DNA from: Bryobacterales bacterium
GTDB lineage: Bacteria > Acidobacteriota > Terriglobia > Bryobacterales > UBA6623
NCBI GenBank assembly: GCA_965203925.1
Contig: OZ241924.1
Location: forward strand, 6,741,206 to 6,805,205
Reading direction: 5' to 3'
DNA: 64,000 bases
Shown: positions 13,116 to 64,000 of the stretch, piece after piece
Layout: each line of letters opens with the position of its first letter
Numbering within the stretch: position 1 is the first letter of the stretch
Program-made: the position numbers and the translations under genes
Notes under the pieces: model-generated
Databases searched by the model: none
Told to the model about the DNA's origin: nothing
What the model saw: the letters and a program-made list of their open reading frames with translations, nothing else

Positions 13116-14030
13116 TTGGGGGTGCCCTCGGTCGCCTCTTTGGCGGCCTTTCGGGAGGAAGCCGATAGCGTGGCCGCCGACGCGCATGGGCCGACCGCCG
13201 GCAGCAGCCGGATGGGCAAGCCGCGGCTGACAATGGCATACCAGACGAGGGGCACCCGCCGACCTAGCTGGTTGAGAGGACGGCGGGCGAGGAAGCGACA
13301 ATCTGGGTCCGGAGCCGGCCAAGAGACGCCGGGGACATCCCAAGCCGGTCCCGAGGCCATCTTTCGGGAACGGTTCCGCCGGCTGAAGCCAAGGACCGAA
13401 ACGCCGGCGTTCAAACTTCGCTTCCGGCCCTACGCCAGCCTGCGGTCGACCATTAAGATGCAGCCTGGCTCGCGCACGATCGAAGTGAATCTCAGCGACA
13501 TGCTGCGCGACGCCCCGCCGGATGTGCTGGACTCACTTGCCGCCATCCTGCTGTCAAAGCTGTACCGGCGGCAGATTCCCAAACGCACTCGGCGACGCTA
13601 TGAGCTGTGGACCCACAGCCAGGCCGTGCAGGACCGGATGCTTGCAGTCCGGCGTGAGCGGGGCCGCAAGAACGTGCTGCCGCCCGCTGGAACCGTGCAC
13701 GACCTGAACGCGCTGTTCGACAGGCTGAACCGCCGGCACTTCGCGGGGAGCCTGCGCAAGCCGGGCTTGGGCTGGAGCCCTAAAGCGTCCCGCAGGCGCC
13801 TCGGCCACTACGATCCGGCCCACGACGTAATCGTCATCAGCCGCATCTTCGATCAGGCTCGTGCGCCGGAGCTGGCGCTGGAGTACGTGCTATTTCACGA
13901 AATGCTGCACGTCAAGCACCCAGCGGAGCTTCGCGGAACGCGCCGGCGCGTCCACACGCCCGAATTTCAGGCCGAGGAACGGACATTCCCGGGCTACGAG
14001 CGCGCCAAGGAATTGATCCGCTCGCTCTGA
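13116..14030 (+). CDS. SprT-like / zincin-fold metallopeptidase-like protein
   Basis: C-terminal LEYVLFHEMLHVKHP....HTPEFQAEERTFPGYERA (HExxH plus a downstream His). The true start is probably downstream of 13116. Confidence 0.6.
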   Translation: MGVPSVASLAAFREEADSVAADAHGPTAGSSRMGKPRLTMAYQTRGTRRPSWLRGRRARKRQSGSGAGQETPGTSQAGPEAIFRERFRRLKPRTETPAFKLRFRPYASLRSTIKMQPGSRTIEVNLSDMLRDAPPDVLDSLAAILLSKLYRRQIPKRTRRRYELWTHSQAVQDRMLAVRRERGRKNVLPPAGTVHDLNALFDRLNRRHFAGSLRKPGLGWSPKASRRRLGHYDPAHDVIVISRIFDQARAPELALEYVLFHEMLHVKHPAELRGTRRRVHTPEFQAEERTFPGYERAKELIRSL

Positions 14031-55215: not shown

Positions 55216-56663
55216 TCCGCTGGACGCAGATCGGCCGGATCATCGGACTGTTCCTGATCGCGCTCGCGGGCGCGATGATGATCCCGTGCGCGTACTCGAT
55301 CGCCACTGGCGACGATGACCTAGCGCCGCTGGCCGCGGCAGTGGCAGTCACGGCGGTAGCGGGCGGCGTGCTAGCGGGAAGCTGCCGCAGGGCGCGGAGA
55401 GAACTCACGCAGCGAGAAGGCATCCTGCTCACCGTGGCTGTGTGGCTCGCCGCATCCGTCTTTGGCGGCCTGCCGTTCCTGTTCGCTCCTGGAATCGAGA
55501 CCTTCACGGACGCAGTATTTGAGTCCGCTTCGGGGGTGACCACGACCGGTGCAACCATCCTCGTCGAAGTGGAGCGGCTGTCACGGCCGCTGCTGCTGTG
55601 GCGCGCGCTCTCCTCGTGGCTGGGGGGCATGGGCATTGTCGTCCTAGTGATCGCCGTCCTGCCATTGGTCGGGCACGGCGGGATGCACCTGTACCGCGCC
55701 GAATTCTCCGGCGCATCCTCCGAGAAACTGTCCCCGCGCGTCGCAGAGACGGCAGGCTCTCTCTGGGGCATTTACCTTGCGCTTACCAGCCTATTGGTCG
55801 GCTTACTTGCGGTCGCCGGAATGGGGCCCTTCGACGCGATCGCCCATGCGTTCGCGACGATGGCCACGGGCGGTTTCTCGACGCGGACGGCCAGCATTGG
55901 CGCCTTCGACAGCTCCACGATCGAATACATCACTACGCTGTTCATGATCCTTGGGGGCTGCAGCTTCATCCTGCACTATCGTGCCCTGATCGAGCGGCGA
56001 CCGATTGCGGCGCTGCGTGACTACGAACTGCGAAACTTTCTCGGCCTGGTCGCGTTGGCTACCCTCGTCGAGGCTGCGCTGCTGCTCTTCGATCGCGGCT
56101 ATCCTCTCGAGAGGGCGCTGCGGACCGCTGTCTTTCAGGTCTCCTCGATCACCACCACCACCGGCTTCGCAACCGACGACTTTGAGGCATGGCCACCCCT
56201 AGGCCAGCTTCTCCTGCTTGCGCTGATGTTCACCGGCGGCTGTACCGGTTCTACAGCGGGAGGGATGAAGGTCTCGAGGCTGCTCGTGCTGGTTAAGGTG
56301 GTCGGCCGCGAGTTCAAGCGCATGGTCGAACGCCACGGAGTGTTCGTAGTGCGCCTTGGAGGCTCGGTGATCCCGGAGCCGTCGATCCAGAGCCTTCTCA
56401 ATCTGGTCTACCTCGCCTTCGTGGTCAACTTCGCGTCCTGCCTGATGCTGGCCGCGGTGGGTGTCGACGTGTTCACCGCGATCTCAGCGGTGGCCGCAAC
56501 TATGTTCAACATCGGCCCGGCCCTCGCCGGAGTCGGCCCGACAGACAACTACGCCGGCTTGCCAGCCATCGCCAAGTGGGTGCTGTGCTTCGACATGATT
56601 GCTGGCCGCTTGGAGTTCTACACGCTGCTCGTGACCGTTACACCGTGGTTCTGGCGGAAGTAG
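55212..56663 (+). CDS. trkH: Trk potassium uptake system membrane subunit
   Basis: Polytopic, with repeated pore-loop motifs (SGVTTTG, TGGFS, TTTGFA, GGCTGSTAGGMK). GTGA overlap with the trkA stop. Confidence 0.9.
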   Translation: MIRWTQIGRIIGLFLIALAGAMMIPCAYSIATGDDDLAPLAAAVAVTAVAGGVLAGSCRRARRELTQREGILLTVAVWLAASVFGGLPFLFAPGIETFTDAVFESASGVTTTGATILVEVERLSRPLLLWRALSSWLGGMGIVVLVIAVLPLVGHGGMHLYRAEFSGASSEKLSPRVAETAGSLWGIYLALTSLLVGLLAVAGMGPFDAIAHAFATMATGGFSTRTASIGAFDSSTIEYITTLFMILGGCSFILHYRALIERRPIAALRDYELRNFLGLVALATLVEAALLLFDRGYPLERALRTAVFQVSSITTTTGFATDDFEAWPPLGQLLLLALMFTGGCTGSTAGGMKVSRLLVLVKVVGREFKRMVERHGVFVVRLGGSVIPEPSIQSLLNLVYLAFVVNFASCLMLAAVGVDVFTAISAVAATMFNIGPALAGVGPTDNYAGLPAIAKWVLCFDMIAGRLEFYTLLVTVTPWFWRK

Positions 56664-56677
56664 CCATATCCGTGCTA

Positions 56678-57637
56678 TCATGATGGGGTCCGGTTGGCCT
56701 GGTGCCGGTTACCAAGCTTTCCGTCGAGGGGGGTGCGGGCAACACTCCCCTCGGTTTTTTCCTGCGCCAGTTCGCGAAGGAGGGAATCCTTGCGGTGGGC
56801 GCCCCTGACAATTCGCGCGAGGCGGTTGCGCCTGGCGGTGTTCCAAGCGGTGTAGTACCGCTCGGTGGTTTGCACGCTGCTGTGGCCCAGCAGGGTACTG
56901 ACGTCGTGCATGGCCACCCCCGAGAGGAGCAGCTCGACGGCAAAAGTGTCCCGCAGGCGGTGTGGGTGAAAGCCCTCGACACCCGCCGCGGTGGCGACCC
57001 CCCGGAGTCGCCGCCGCCAGTACTTCGTGCAGGTCTCACGGAGTGACCTGCCCGTCCAGAAGTAGTGCGGCCCGTACCGCTCGGGCAGACCCTCGAGCGC
57101 CGCTATCACAGGCGCCGGCAGCAGTACAGTCACGAGCTCGCCGCTCTTGGCGCGGCGCAGGACGAGCTCGCCACACTCCCTCAAATCGCTCCTCGGGAGG
57201 GTGACGGCGTCGCCGATCGCCAGCCCGGACCAGCGCATCAGCAGCATCAGCGCTCGCTCCGGGGAGCCCCCCGGCGCGGCCGCCAGAAGGCGCCGCATCT
57301 CGTCCCGCTCCAAGGGCAGTGTCTGCTTCTGTCGCGCCTTCGGGGGCCGTATGCGGGCCGCCGGGGACTGGTCGACCCAGCCTTCTTGCACGGCGTGGCG
57401 GTAGAACGCCTTGATCCGCCCCAGCTCTGTCCGCCGCGTGCTGGCGGCCAGGCCCCTCTCCTCGAGCCAATTCCGCAGCGCGTCGGCGTCGATCTGGTCG
57501 AGGTCGACCAGGTCGCGACGGTCGGCGTACGCCTCCAGCGACCGGAACGTGCACGCGTGTCCGGCACGGGTCGAGCGCCTCAGGTCTCGAGCCTTGAGGT
57601 CGCGCAGCCAGGCTTTCACCGCCGCGCCGAGCGTCAC
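56678..57637 (-). CDS. tyrosine recombinase / phage-type integrase
   Basis: RWSGLAIGD (Arg I), HPHRLRDTFA (H-x-x-R) and LLGHSSVQTTERYY (His/Tyr nucleophile). GTG at 57637 overlaps the resolvase stop (GTGA). The 840-aa ORF in the track is an artefactual fusion. Confidence 0.85.
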   Translation of the reverse strand: MTLGAAVKAWLRDLKARDLRRSTRAGHACTFRSLEAYADRRDLVDLDQIDADALRNWLEERGLAASTRRTELGRIKAFYRHAVQEGWVDQSPAARIRPPKARQKQTLPLERDEMRRLLAAAPGGSPERALMLLMRWSGLAIGDAVTLPRSDLRECGELVLRRAKSGELVTVLLPAPVIAALEGLPERYGPHYFWTGRSLRETCTKYWRRRLRGVATAAGVEGFHPHRLRDTFAVELLLSGVAMHDVSTLLGHSSVQTTERYYTAWNTARRNRLARIVRGAHRKDSLLRELAQEKTEGSVARTPLDGKLGNRHQANRTPS

Positions 57638-58230
57638 ACCGGGACTCCCTTGTGGATGCCCGGATAGGCGTCGGGGTCCCCGCCCGGGAACCACTTGTAG
57701 AGCGTCGAGACGTCGATGCCGAGGCTCTTGGCGATCTCGGTCCTGAGCAGGCGCTTGTCGCGCAGCAAGGCCTGCACCCTGCGGACGTGCTCGGGGTCGT
57801 GGAACGGCGACCGGCGCCCCCACAGCTCCCCCCGCTCGCGGGCGAGCCGGGCGGCGAGCCTGGTGCGCTCCCGCGCCAGGTCCGCCTCCATCTCGGCCAG
57901 CGCGGCGAACAGGACGAAGACCAGCCGCCCGCCGGGGGTGCCGGTGTCGATCGCCTCGGTCAGGGACACCAGCTGGCAGCCGCGCCGCTGCAGGCGCGCC
58001 GCCAGGTCGAGCATGTGGCGCACGGAGCGGGCCAGGCGGTCGAAGCGCCAAACGACCAGGCTGTCCCCGGGCCGCAGGAACTCCAGGCACTCGTCGAGCT
58101 GCTCGCGCGCCTCCAGGCGTCCGGAGGCCTTGTCCCGGAACACCCTCTCGCAGCCCTGCCCCTGCAGGGCGCGGAGCTGCGCCTCCGGGTCCTGGTCCAA
58201 CGTGCTCACGCGCGCGTATCCGACTCGCAT
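57634..58230 (-). CDS. serine recombinase (resolvase/invertase family)
   Basis: MRVGYARVSTLDQDPEAQ (catalytic Ser), VVWRFDRLARS, and a C-terminal HTH (RTEIAKSLGIDVSTLYKW). Confidence 0.9.
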   Translation of the reverse strand: MRVGYARVSTLDQDPEAQLRALQGQGCERVFRDKASGRLEAREQLDECLEFLRPGDSLVVWRFDRLARSVRHMLDLAARLQRRGCQLVSLTEAIDTGTPGGRLVFVLFAALAEMEADLARERTRLAARLARERGELWGRRSPFHDPEHVRRVQALLRDKRLLRTEIAKSLGIDVSTLYKWFPGGDPDAYPGIHKGVPV

Positions 58231-58270
58231 TGCCGATATCGCTCCTTCCCCGAAGTATAGGCGCAGGCCA

Positions 58271-58370
58271 TCGGCAAGCCCATCGGCAATGCCTCCGGGG
58301 CCTGTTCCGGGCCGTTCGGGGCCGCTCCCGGGACCGTTGCCGAAAGGACCCTTTCGGCAACGGTCGGCAA
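58271..58370. promoter_or_regulatory. res-like recombinase binding-site cluster
   Basis: TCGGCAA occurs at 58271, 58283, 58354 and 58364, and inverted (TTGCCGA) at 58337. The segment 58335-58362 is a 28-bp palindrome: CGTTGCCGAAAGG-AC-CCTTTCGGCAACG. The cluster starts 41 bp upstream of the resolvase start codon. Confidence 0.45.
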
Positions 58371-58439
58371 TGGCGCCGTATTAGAATCCGGCCAGTGCCG
58401 CGCATTCCAGGTGACGAGGCAGGGGAGCTCCGGGAGGCC

Positions 58440-58877
58440 ATGCGCGCGGCGCGCGCCAGATCGCTGCGCTTCGGCGAGATGCTGGCCCGCCATCTCCAGC
58501 GCAGGCAGTGGGTCCAGGGACTGTCCTTCGGGCTGTCGTCCGCAGCGGCGCTCGCGGTCCTCGCGGGGCCCTGGCCGCGGGTCGCGGCCGTGCTGGCGGG
58601 GGCCGTGGCGGTCGCGAACGCCTGGGGGGCTGCCGCCTGCCCGCACCAGGAGCTCGTCAGGCTCGCGGCGCTGAGGAGCGGCTGGGAGTCCCTGCGAATC
58701 GACTGCGGCAGCCTCTTGTCCAGCCGGCGCGGGGGCGGGGCGCGGGGGCGGTTCGACGCGCTGCAGCAGCGTGCCGACCGCCTCGGGTCACTGGCGAGTT
58801 CCGGAAGTCCCCGGAAACCGGGCGCGGCAGGGCGCTGGGAGCGCTTCGCGGGTTGCGGGACCGATCGGGAGGCCTGA
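58440..58877 (+). CDS. small 2-TM membrane protein
   Basis: MRAARARSLRFGEMLARHLQRRQW, then two hydrophobic helices (LSFGLSSAAALAVLAG and VAAVLAGAVAVANAWGAA), then a helical tail. An alternative in-frame GTG lies at 58395. The topology is reminiscent of SLATT-type domains, but this is speculative. Confidence 0.45.
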   Translation: MRAARARSLRFGEMLARHLQRRQWVQGLSFGLSSAAALAVLAGPWPRVAAVLAGAVAVANAWGAAACPHQELVRLAALRSGWESLRIDCGSLLSSRRGGGARGRFDALQQRADRLGSLASSGSPRKPGAAGRWERFAGCGTDREA

Positions 58878-58886
58878 GGCGCATCG

Positions 58887-59243
58887 ATGGCTGACGGCTC
58901 GATCGACGGCCGCCGGCCGGCCTGGGGCGGGCCGGGGCGGTTCGCTGCGGAGAAGGGGAGGATCGAGCGGCACCGGCGCGAGATGCAGCGCAGGCAGGCG
59001 GAGCATCTCGCCAGGCTGAAGCGCCGCGGCCGGCTGTTCGGTTTCTGGTTCGCCGCCCTGTCGGCCCTCGCAGCCCTGTCGGCGGCCGCAAGCGGCAGGC
59101 CGCTGCATGCTGCCGTCGTGGCGGCGGCCGCCGCCGCCATGTTCGCCCTCCTGCGCGGCGCGTGGAGCAGCGCACCACCCCTGCCTGAGGCCAGGCCCAT
59201 CGGCCCGCCGCCTGCGCCGCGGAAGCCTACAATGGGCTCCTGA
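58887..59243 (+). CDS. small 2-TM membrane protein
   Basis: Basic coiled segment RIERHRREMQRRQAEHLARLKRRGR, then LFGFWFAALSALAALSAAA and LHAAVVAAAAAAMFALL. It starts 9 nt after the upstream gene and overlaps the next gene with TGATG. Confidence 0.45.
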   Translation: MADGSIDGRRPAWGGPGRFAAEKGRIERHRREMQRRQAEHLARLKRRGRLFGFWFAALSALAALSAAASGRPLHAAVVAAAAAAMFALLRGAWSSAPPLPEARPIGPPPAPRKPTMGS

Positions 59244-59548
59244 TGCCCGATTCCCCGACGCCGCAGCCGGACTCCAAGCTCCTGTTCGACCTGCTCTTGG
59301 ACTTGAAGATGGAGCCGGGGGGCGCCTATACTTTCACTCAGGAGGTCGGGAACATGGCCGCCGCCAATCTCATCGCCCGCTTCGAGTCCAAGCTCGATGC
59401 GCAGGGCTCTCGCTTCGACTCCAGGCTCGAGGCCCAGAACACGCAGACGGCCTCGCTGAAGTCCGAGATTGCCTCGCTCCGCTGGATGATCGGCCTCGGG
59501 TTCACCCTGCTGGCCCTGCTCATCACCCTGCTTCGCTTCCTAGGCTGA
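59243..59548 (+). CDS. DUF1640-like coiled-coil protein with C-terminal TM anchor
   Basis: LLFDLLLDLKMEPGGAYTFTQEV... coiled coil ...WMIGLGFTLLALLITLLRF. It is a paralogue of the gene at 62937-63203. Confidence 0.55.
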   Translation: MPDSPTPQPDSKLLFDLLLDLKMEPGGAYTFTQEVGNMAAANLIARFESKLDAQGSRFDSRLEAQNTQTASLKSEIASLRWMIGLGFTLLALLITLLRFLG

Positions 59549-62199: not shown

Positions 62200-62511
62200 A
62201 TGTCGGACAGCATTGGCGTGGCAGGCCTCACGCTGGCGGTCCTCATGTCCGGCGTGATGATAGCCATCGCCACGCTCGGCGCGGCGGCCCCGGAGGCCGG
62301 CGCGGAAGGCGCGGCCCTGCGGCGCCCCGCGGCGGAGTGCCGCTGGGAGCTCGTGGAGGTCGGCGCGGCGGCGGGCTGGCGCGGGGTACTCGAGTCGTGG
62401 CCCGTCCAGGCCCCGGCCCCCCTCGTGCTGCTCGACCAGTGCTCCGGAGAGACTTGGCTGGCCGCCCGCGGCCCGTCGGGCCTCGAGTGGCGGGAGGTTC
62501 CCAGGCGCTAG
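62200..62511 (+). CDS. small secreted/anchored hypothetical protein
   Basis: MSDSIGVAGLTLAVLMSGVMIAIATLGAAAPEA is signal/anchor-like. An alternative ATG lies at 62173. Confidence 0.4.
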   Translation: MSDSIGVAGLTLAVLMSGVMIAIATLGAAAPEAGAEGAALRRPAAECRWELVEVGAAAGWRGVLESWPVQAPAPLVLLDQCSGETWLAARGPSGLEWREVPRR

Positions 62512-62936: not shown

Positions 62937-63203
62937 CTACTCTGCCCCCATCCGGAGGATGGCCACGAGGGCAAGAACGGCCGCGACGGCGGCACAGACG
63001 AGGATCACCAGCCGCTGGAATCCCCCCAGCCCGGATTCCAGGGCGTCGATCCGGGCCTCGACGCGGGCCTCGACGCGGGTGATGAAGTTCTCCGCCGCCA
63101 TGTGCCGCACCTCCCGCACGCAGGCATAGGCCTCCTTGGGGTCGGCGCCCATCTTGACCAGCAGGTCGAAGAGGCGGCTGTCGTCCGGCGGGGCGTGCCT
63201 CAT
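62937..63203 (-). CDS. DUF1640-like coiled-coil protein with C-terminal TM anchor
   Basis: SRLFDLLVKMGADPKEAYACVREVRHMAAENFITRVEARVEARIDALE...LVILVCAAVAAVLALVAIL. Its start overlaps the ssb stop by 4 nt. Confidence 0.6.
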   Translation of the reverse strand: MRHAPPDDSRLFDLLVKMGADPKEAYACVREVRHMAAENFITRVEARVEARIDALESGLGGFQRLVILVCAAVAAVLALVAILRMGAE

Positions 63204-63574
63204 GCGGAGGGCCTCATGCCGCTTCCCGCTGCCCGGTGCGGCGGCTTCCTGGGGGTCAGCACGACGACGTCCCTCGCGCGGCAGGCCACCTCGGTCCGCC
63301 AGCGCGTCTCGCCGTCCTGGTCCCAGCTGCGCGTGCGCAGCCGGCCGCTTACGTGCAGCCGGACGCCCTTGCGCAGCATCGGCCGGAGGGGCCCGGCGTC
63401 CCAGATCGTCACGTCGTGCCACTCCGTGGCCTCGGCCCACCCGCCGTCCGCGCCCCTGGCGGGGCGGTTCGTGGCAAGCCGCACGTGCGCGACGGGCGTG
63501 CCGTCGGCGTCGCGCCAGGTCGGGGCCTGCCCGACGTTGCCGAGCAGGAAGACCTGGTTCACGGAGACTGCCAT
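63200..63574 (-). CDS. ssb: single-stranded DNA-binding protein (OB fold), no acidic C-terminal tip
   Basis: VNQVFLLGNVGQAPTWR...VRLATN...TEWHDVTIW...LRKGVRLHVSGRLRTRSWDQDGETRWRTEV. It ends ...RAAGSGMRPSA rather than with the D-D-D-I-P-F type tail. Confidence 0.8.
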   Translation of the reverse strand: MAVSVNQVFLLGNVGQAPTWRDADGTPVAHVRLATNRPARGADGGWAEATEWHDVTIWDAGPLRPMLRKGVRLHVSGRLRTRSWDQDGETRWRTEVACRARDVVVLTPRKPPHRAAGSGMRPSA

Positions 63575-63630
63575 GGCCCGATAGTCCCACGGCCGGGCCG
63601 CGCTGGCCAGCGATGAGTCCGGCCCGCGCC

Positions 63631-63951: not shown

Positions 63952-64000
63952 GCGGCACCCGCGGTCGTCGGGGCCCAGCCGCCAGCCCAGGTTCTCGCAG

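Follow-up and report, generated by a model that had tools for sequence, protein, structure and literature searches.

The Resolvase–Integrase Pair and Its Island

The window, i.e., the whole 64,000-nucleotide stretch of Bryobacterales DNA that was analyzed, carries a gene for a small serine recombinase (Table 1). The N-terminal part of the protein matches the Resolvase family (PF00239, E 8.6e-41), and its C-terminal HTH was recognized by a weak match. When compared with solved structures, Gin invertase is the closest (E 2e-36), followed by the gamma-delta and Tn3 resolvases (5e-20) and Sin (8e-16 to 5e-13), and none of the curated NCBIfam equivalogs was matched by the recombinase. A protein search gave a clade of roughly 60 recombinases 55–96% identical to that of the window; the clade loci fetched were L001–L004, L082–L085, and L166–L176, and 15 related loci, with recombinases 48–96% identical, were compared. 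Across the clade, the catalytic residues Ser9, Arg7, Asp64, Arg65, and Arg68 show little or no variation, and the recombinase gene is intact. Directly adjoining it lies an array of short repeats, which ends at its ATG.

The recombinase gene is coupled to that of a Xer-like tyrosine integrase, in which only a SAM-like and a catalytic domain were found, and whose likeness to XerC/XerD lies below the family cut-offs. As the neighboring trkH gene ends at 56663, only 14 bp from the integrase stop, the integrase gene forms the outermost part of a foreign island. The homology with L001 stops 6–14 bp past the integrase stop. G+C content rises from ~0.65 to 0.72–0.76 at ~56.7 kb, the trkH–integrase junction, and stays high to the window end; the island continues past position 64000. 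Judged by its genes (KfrA_N and SSB here; ParA, KfrA, SSB, ArdC, and RHH in relatives), the island is plasmid-like in content. A megablast search of the island against plasmids gave no match, and no tRNA was found within the 64-kb window.

The same arrangement recurs at every fetched clade locus, where the recombinase gene is followed by an integrase gene overlapping it by 4 bp, and the integrase gene lies beside unrelated housekeeping genes. The integrase stop is ~6–30 bp from the island junction (L001, L082, L085, L166, L169–L175), and in L173 the integrase gene overlaps the neighboring gene. All insertion points differ: they are located at the ends of genes or between genes, and no tRNA is among them. 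The named clade members obtained by protein search are few, all of them Bryobacterales MAGs; scans of metagenome and viral contigs gave no close relatives of the clade recombinase, and a profile search of genome contigs with the clade alignment returned mostly generic small serine recombinases among the matches listed. None of the ~150 more distant small serine recombinases that were fetched has such an integrase partner, and no published description was found of an island architecture with a resolvase–integrase pair at the island tip.

Table 1. Features of the resolvase–integrase locus. Positions are those of the window; negative offsets are counted from the resolvase start codon.
Feature	Position	Strand	Remarks
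Xer-like tyrosine integrase	56678–57637	−	319 aa; GTG start; 4-bp overlap with the resolvase stop
Small serine recombinase (resolvase)	57634–58230	−	198 aa; Resolvase N-terminal domain and C-terminal HTH; presumed binder of the array
Half-site f	58229–58236	+	ATTGCCGA on the plus strand; −6 to +1; inverted relative to d and e
Putative ribosome-binding site	58242–58249	−	GGAAGGAG; for the resolvase–integrase operon; by eye
Weak inverted half-site	58245–58253	−	TCGGGGAAG; 6/9 match; by eye
Putative −10	58254–58259	−	TATACT, at −29; by eye
Half-site e	58271–58278	−	CTTGCCGA; −48 to −41; direct repeat of d, 12 bp downstream
Half-site d	58283–58290	−	ATTGCCGA; −60 to −53; orientation as left palindrome arm
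Spacer, dyad to proximal half-sites	58294–58338	none	45 bp; about four degenerate 11–12-bp tandem units (TCCGGGGCCGT)
Perfect palindrome	58332–58365	none	16-bp arms 58332–58347 and 58350–58365 around AC at 58348–58349
Inner 28-bp 13-2-13 dyad (b/c)	58335–58362		Proposed crossover subsite ("site I"); centered 119 bp upstream of the resolvase ATG; −132 to −105 in the recombinase direction
Half-site a	58364–58371	−	ATTGCCGA in the resolvase direction; −141; heptamer kept in L001
Divergent gene	58440–58877	+	145 aa; predicted membrane protein; start most likely 58440 by GC3 frame

A Cluster of TCGGCAA Heptamers Around a Perfect Palindrome

Counting both strands, the heptamer TCGGCAA occurs six times within 141 bp upstream of the resolvase. 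The original prediction had listed five of these copies, four on the plus strand (58271, 58283, 58354, and 58364) and one complement at 58337, and its coordinates are exact. The sixth copy lies on the minus strand at 58230–58236 (cATTGCCGA on the plus strand, 58229–58236) and overlaps the resolvase ATG (58230–58228, minus strand). The array had been placed 41–140 bp upstream of the resolvase; its upstream location stands, but the range was too narrow, as the array actually reaches from about −141 to +1 and extends over the start codon. A palindrome of 13-bp arms around a central AC, proposed at 58335–58362, was likewise borne out, and its arms are in fact 16 bp long. The inner 28 bp, CGTTGCCGAAAGG AC CCTTTCGGCAACG, have the make-up of a crossover subsite, i.e., inverted 12–13-bp half-sites around a 2-bp center over ~28 bp.

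A chance origin of the TCGGCAA cluster is excluded. The heptamer is present 27 times in the 64-kb window, against 10.1 copies expected, and 0 of 100 shuffles reached 27. Moreover, six copies in 141 bp constitute the densest cluster of any 7-mer in the 64-kb window, a density attained in none of 100 Markov-1 simulated windows (maximum five). The second-densest 7-mer cluster of the window consists of five copies of CCGCGCC within 107 bp (62278–62384), and may simply reflect very high G+C content.

In total, the array covers 143 bp (58229–58371) and comprises six half-sites. Four further half-site cores accompany the dyad within this span, as expected of accessory recombinase sites in cis, which extend over ~100–140 bp. 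Half-site a, on the side distal to the resolvase gene, repeats the left palindrome half-site in the same orientation at a 10-bp offset. The tandem units of the spacer (TRF score 44–58) bear a weak likeness to the half-site, with 8–9 of 13 matches; together with the 12-bp-spaced TTGCCGA repeats, they form about six phased units. Half-site e coincides with the expected −35 position of the resolvase promoter. A scan of 58100–58600 for consensus promoters and terminators gave no sigma-70 match and no terminator, which is why the promoter elements of Table 1 are proposed by eye only.

Conservation of the Dyad and Co-Variation of Its Arms

A dyad of 13-2-13 geometry, the best or near-best of its locus, is centered 111–131 bp upstream of the recombinase start in 15 of 15 clade loci. 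Outward from the center, position 1 of the half-site is G in all 26 cases, position 2 is G or C, and positions 3–5 are A in 22–25 of 26; farther out, G occupies position 12 in 21 and T occupies position 11 in 15 of the 26 half-sites. The central dinucleotide is AT in ten loci (9/13 when only non-redundant loci are counted), GC in three, TT in one, and AC or GT in the window and L001. On the protein side, the clade-invariant Gly138-Arg139 aligns with the Gly-Arg linker of Gin. In Hin and Tn3, this linker lies in the minor groove of an A/T tract and is termed an "AT hook" (PMC9943657).

The recognition part of the arm varies from locus to locus, being TTGCCG in the window and GTCCGC, CTCGGA, CCACCA, and others elsewhere. 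Co-variation was assessed over 13 non-redundant loci by searching the interval from dyad to start codon with the locus's own arm 8-mers, one mismatch being allowed. Own-arm matches numbered 15, against ~4 expected (0.31 per cross pair), and 0 of 20,000 derangements reached 15, in statistics that take the loci as independent although some are related. A forward half-site recurs at −48 to −60 (window, L002, L170, and L175), and a reverse half-site at −6 to −9 (window, L170, L171, L003, and L004). As each locus repeats its own arm in this way, the protein that reads the dyad very likely also reads the promoter and start-codon sites.

Dyads Upstream of More Distant Recombinases and on Plasmids

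The core of the dyad can be written as the regular expression [AG]AA[ACG]SS NN SS[CGT]TT[CT]. It was matched 30 times in the 26.6 kb of DNA located 30–220 bp upstream of 140 non-clade recombinases without an integrase (a set made up of the distant loci returned by the contig scans above), compared with 30 matches in 926 kb of control DNA (the remaining DNA of the same non-clade loci), which constitutes a ~35-fold enrichment upstream of non-clade small serine recombinases. These dyads are found at −95 to −207 (L070 has a second match at −72); their flanks are dyad-symmetric, and their centers vary. Because the enrichment is observed where the integrase is absent, this sequence comparison shows that the dyad belongs with the serine recombinase rather than with the integrase.

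Recombinases ~50% identical to that of the window are also encoded on plasmids, with ParA and toxin-antitoxin genes as neighbors and no coupled integrase. These plasmid relatives have dyads near −125, together with a pair of inverted half-sites that spans the promoter and the start region. For example, the dyad of Sphingomonas pA46BH3 lies ~125 bp upstream and has a GT center (CCCGCGAACG GT CGTTCGCGCG), in a layout similar to that of the array here. These alphaproteobacterial plasmid recombinases (that of pA46BH3 is annotated just as "recombinase family protein") reside on free plasmids, unlike the integrated islands described here, and no characterization of their sites was found. Exactly one dyad was counted in each of two complete plasmids, pA46BH3 and S. 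rosea p17; a single site of this kind is what a replicon requires for multimer resolution, and would not be enough for inversion.

Plasmid p32 of Sphingomonas sp. AAP5 (L183) carries direct dyad copies at 13829 and 28429, 14.6 kb apart. The left arm and center of the second copy are identical, and its right arm diverges. The two copies bound a heavy-metal resistance block, as if they were the product of res-mediated recombination.

A Probable Res-Type Array of the Adjacent Recombinase

Positions 58229–58371 are probably the cognate res-type binding-site array of the adjacent small serine recombinase. We infer binding, a cleavage position, resolution rather than inversion, and repression: a recombinase dimer would bind the core of the 28-bp palindrome, its HTH domains reading the outer GTTGCC and its conserved Gly-Arg linker lying in the minor groove of the AAA tract, and would cleave both strands at the central AC. 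The four extra ATTGCCGA-type half-sites would be filled by further subunits, perhaps together with the degenerate 11–12-bp repeats, and the DNA wrapped in this way would restrict strand exchange to two directly repeated copies on one molecule. Dimers or concatemers of the plasmid-like island, formed after its excision, would supply such direct copies and would be converted into monomers by resolution. Occupation of the proximal half-sites, which extend over the −35 region and the start codon, would in addition repress the resolvase–integrase operon, as Tn3 resolvase does at res. Several features speak for resolution, namely the half-sites beside the dyad, the mostly symmetric AT/GC centers of the relatives, the single-site plasmids, the lack of a second site in the window, the plasmid-like nature of the island, and the precedent of SGI1 described below.

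A res-like array, with a crossover dyad and further half-sites upstream of a serine recombinase and perhaps an operator function too, is what the original prediction had proposed. The intact recombinase gene supports this reading, and further support comes from the 13-2-13 dyad in 15 relatives, the arm co-variation, and the dyads of relatives without an integrase. With regard to the layout of the subsites, the crossover dyad was correctly anticipated, but the inverted dimer subsites of the Tn3 kind were not found, the extra elements being direct repeats or lone half-sites. The lack of a second site had also been regarded as evidence against the res-like reading. No second copy of the palindrome was detected in the 64-kb window (next best PWM score 12.3, against 31.7) or in the genome contig and viral contig collections searched. 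For a resolvase, this argument is invalid, because one res copy per element suffices: a dimer or concatemer provides the second copy with which it recombines. Complete plasmids with relatives do carry a single dyad.

Comparison with Known Recombination Systems

The integrative mobilizable island SGI1 possesses a 107-bp res upstream of its res gene, which contains the res promoter and removes island multimers or concatemers after transfer (PMC12217951). Like the island described here, SGI1 is integrated in its host and also carries a tyrosine integrase (PMC12217951). As in Tn3/gamma-delta and SGI1, the array immediately precedes the recombinase gene, and its element farthest from the gene is the crossover subsite. 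Again as in these systems, the crossover dyad is 28 bp long with a 2-bp center, and the array overlaps the recombinase promoter region. Site I of gamma-delta (CGTCCGAAATATT AT AAATTATCAGACA) has a 13-2-13 geometry with an outer G-T at positions 12–11, and the core of gix/hix is AAACC-NN-GGTTT; the geometry of the dyad here matches both.

In its total span (143 bp) and its number of half-sites (six), the array resembles Tn3 res, which has 114 bp and binds three dimers, and the 107-bp res of SGI1. The array differs from these resolvase sites in its accessory part. Unlike those of Tn3, its accessory half-sites are direct repeats (d/e at 12 bp, a/b at 10 bp) plus the lone inverted f, and inverted accessory sites II (34 bp) and III (25 bp) of the Tn3 type were not found, the partners being absent or very weak. 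A fit of the proximal half-sites to Tn3-like sites II and III was considered and rejected: the span from d to f is 64 bp, the length of Tn3 site II, spacer, and site III together, yet the partner half-sites are missing. The next strong half-site follows the dyad after 45 bp, versus 22 bp in Tn3-type res. In addition, the recombinase does not fall into the Tn3/gamma-delta lineage (E 2e-36 for Gin versus 5e-20), and, unlike in the Tn3 and SGI1 systems, its gene is translationally coupled to that of an integrase.

Sin/beta-type res sites consist of a crossover site I, a head-to-tail site II, and an HU/IHF site, the whole covering about 86–90 bp, and 86 bp in Sin (PMC2428073). The array here resembles that of Sin in having one crossover dyad, accessory half-sites in direct repeat, which recall the head-to-tail site II of Sin more than the inverted dyads of Tn3, and a structured spacer that could bend or wrap. 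It differs from it in its 143 bp and six half-sites, and in the low sequence similarity of the recombinases (E 8e-16 to 5e-13); no architectural-protein site was recognizable in the array by comparison with the Sin type. Overall, this is a known kind of system, which is set apart by its non-canonical accessory half-sites and the unusual coupling to a tyrosine integrase.

Alternative Explanations

The array might instead act only as an operator, at which the recombinase or another HTH dimer of the island represses the resolvase–integrase operon, and perhaps the divergent gene, without any strand exchange. Its half-sites extend over the start codon and into the presumed −35 region, the reverse one at −6 to −9 recurs in five lineages, and, given the 4-bp overlap with the integrase gene, binding would control island excision and integration. 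As no consensus sigma-70 promoter was detected, it is position that suggests an operator role, here as in the res-type reading. Nevertheless, we consider a purely regulatory function unlikely: all the catalytic residues are conserved across the clade, and 13-2-13 arms with an A-tract and a variable 2-bp center have the look of a crossover site. The dyad is also ~90 bp upstream of the putative −10, farther than a simple repressor needs, and the divergent gene is not kept beside it in the relatives.

Slightly less probable again is that the palindrome constitutes a gix/hix-type crossover site of an invertase, with an inverted second copy beyond position 64000 and extra half-sites that are operator or incidental. 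Gin is the closest solved relative of the recombinase, and the dyad shares with gix/hix the S-S beside the center, the A-tract, and the recognition bases, its core AAAGG-NN-CCTTT resembling that of the invertase sites. The central AC of the window is asymmetric, as in these sites, and second dyads exist in L170 (4520–4547; inverted, 3.3 kb away) and L172 (5150–5177; 2.7 kb away). However, invertase sites are not known to be accompanied by additional half-site arrays such as the one flanking the dyad here, and the symmetric AT/GC centers that prevail in the relatives suit resolvases, whose directionality is set by accessory sites. Only one dyad is present on the complete plasmids with relatives, and a second one is absent from most clade loci for which 8 kb of upstream island is available. 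The window contains no second site, inverted or otherwise; since it covers just 5.6 kb of island past the dyad, a distant partner may lie farther out.

A dif-like nature of the 28-bp palindrome (11-bp arms, 6-bp center GGACCC), with use by the Xer-like integrase for dimer resolution or attachment, is highly improbable. The 28 bp can indeed be parsed as 11-6-11, and the integrase resembles XerC/XerD and always accompanies the dyad within the clade. However, the ~35-fold enrichment concerns serine recombinases without an integrase, and the dyad is also found on plasmids that lack one. Its symmetry continues through the center (e.g., AAAGGATCCTTT), which would abolish the directionality conferred by an asymmetric spacer; neither a link to a tyrosine recombinase nor an asymmetric 6–8-bp center, as in dif/cer, was found. 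Finally, in two elements with different insertion points, the dyad is uninterrupted and lies in the interior, and is therefore not the integration site. Arm-type integrase sites were ruled out as well, as the array and the island end are 1.6 kb apart and no arm-binding domain is present in the integrase.

A structural hairpin or cruciform (terminator, RNA element, or replication signal) or a chance repeat is the least probable explanation, and a scarcely credible one: the single-stranded DNA folds well (−22.6 kcal/mol, z −4.0), but relatives keep the pattern and position with arms complementary at merely 8–10 of 13 positions, which is the signature of a protein site and not of a hairpin, there is no T-run and no terminator call in this region between two divergent starts, Rfam gave only a sub-threshold miRNA-like hairpin match (22 bits, against a cut-off of 105), and a chance repeat is excluded by the 7-mer cluster simulations.

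Comparison of the Window with L001 and Possible Roles of the Array

The elements of the window and L001 are 96% identical; over 2.2 kb, they align colinearly without gaps and differ at 99 positions. Only 4 of the 143 array positions differ, two of which form the central dinucleotide, and no heptamer position is affected, despite an intergenic divergence of 4.8%. The center itself is exactly reverse-complemented, as it reads GT in the window (58348–58349) and AC in L001 (510–511) in the resolvase direction. Such a flip could possibly have originated from template switching of the 4-nt hairpin loop GACC/GGTC, or from two independent transitions starting from the AT center that prevails in the relatives. 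It does not mark a larger inversion, which was ruled out by the colinear and ungapped flanks over 2.2 kb. As serine recombinases require matching overhangs, the sites of the window and L001 would not recombine productively with one another.

Going beyond the res-type reading, the array could conceivably be the control hub of an undescribed two-recombinase module of plasmid-like islands, which resolves concatemers and sets the integrase level, the AC/GT center serving as a compatibility barcode; as a whole, we deem this proposal unlikely. In such a module, a Gin-like recombinase would be translationally coupled to a Xer-like integrase at the tip of the element, and the integrase level set from the array would determine the rate of integration and excision. 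The layout would be non-canonical, combining a perfect palindromic crossover site, phased 11–12-bp repeats, and head-to-tail half-sites, and the difference between AC and GT would prevent site-specific recombination between co-resident sister elements.

If confirmed, the res-type reading would provide a defined recombinase–site pair from a poorly studied group, whose named relatives are Acidobacteriota (Bryobacterales MAGs), and would reveal SGI1-like resolution systems in integrated plasmid-like islands outside Proteobacteria. The direct wiring to the integrase gene suggests that multimer resolution and integration may be coordinated. With its GC-rich recognition sequence and its unusually clean, fully symmetric crossover site, the pair could serve as an orthogonal small serine recombinase tool. 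The comparison also offers a candidate crossover-site signature for this recombinase subfamily, i.e., a dyad 110–165 bp upstream of the form RAAASS-NN-SSTTTY.

Mosaicism on the Distal Side of the Dyad

The gene diverging from the resolvase gave no family match. Its homologues were found only in L001, L085, and L170, and it is mostly not kept beside the dyad in relatives. Farther on, positions 59243–59548 encode a 101-aa membrane protein that is 90% identical to the product of the dyad-adjoining gene of L002 (164–487), whereas the resolvases of the two loci are only 71% identical. Compared with L002, the window has two extra genes (58440–59243) between the dyad and the 101-aa gene. According to these sequence comparisons, the island content distal to the dyad is mosaic. 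Mosaic breakpoints located exactly at the dyad center were considered but are not supported, as the similarity between L002 and L082 begins ~25 bp to the left of the center.

Extra dyads are present 0.7–3.3 kb upstream of the primary one in L170 and L172, and also in L166 (1769). The inverted dyad of L170 adjoins a remnant homologue of the window's divergent gene, and could either mark a segment that inverts or be a scar left by island accretion. Within the window, the small proteins encoded at 59243–59548 (plus strand) and 62937–63590 (minus strand), which match no Pfam family, have in common the motif …MAA(A/E)N(L/F)I(A/T)R(F/V)E(S/A)… and, after it, a C-terminal transmembrane helix. Next to the secondary dyad of L172 lies a similar fragment.
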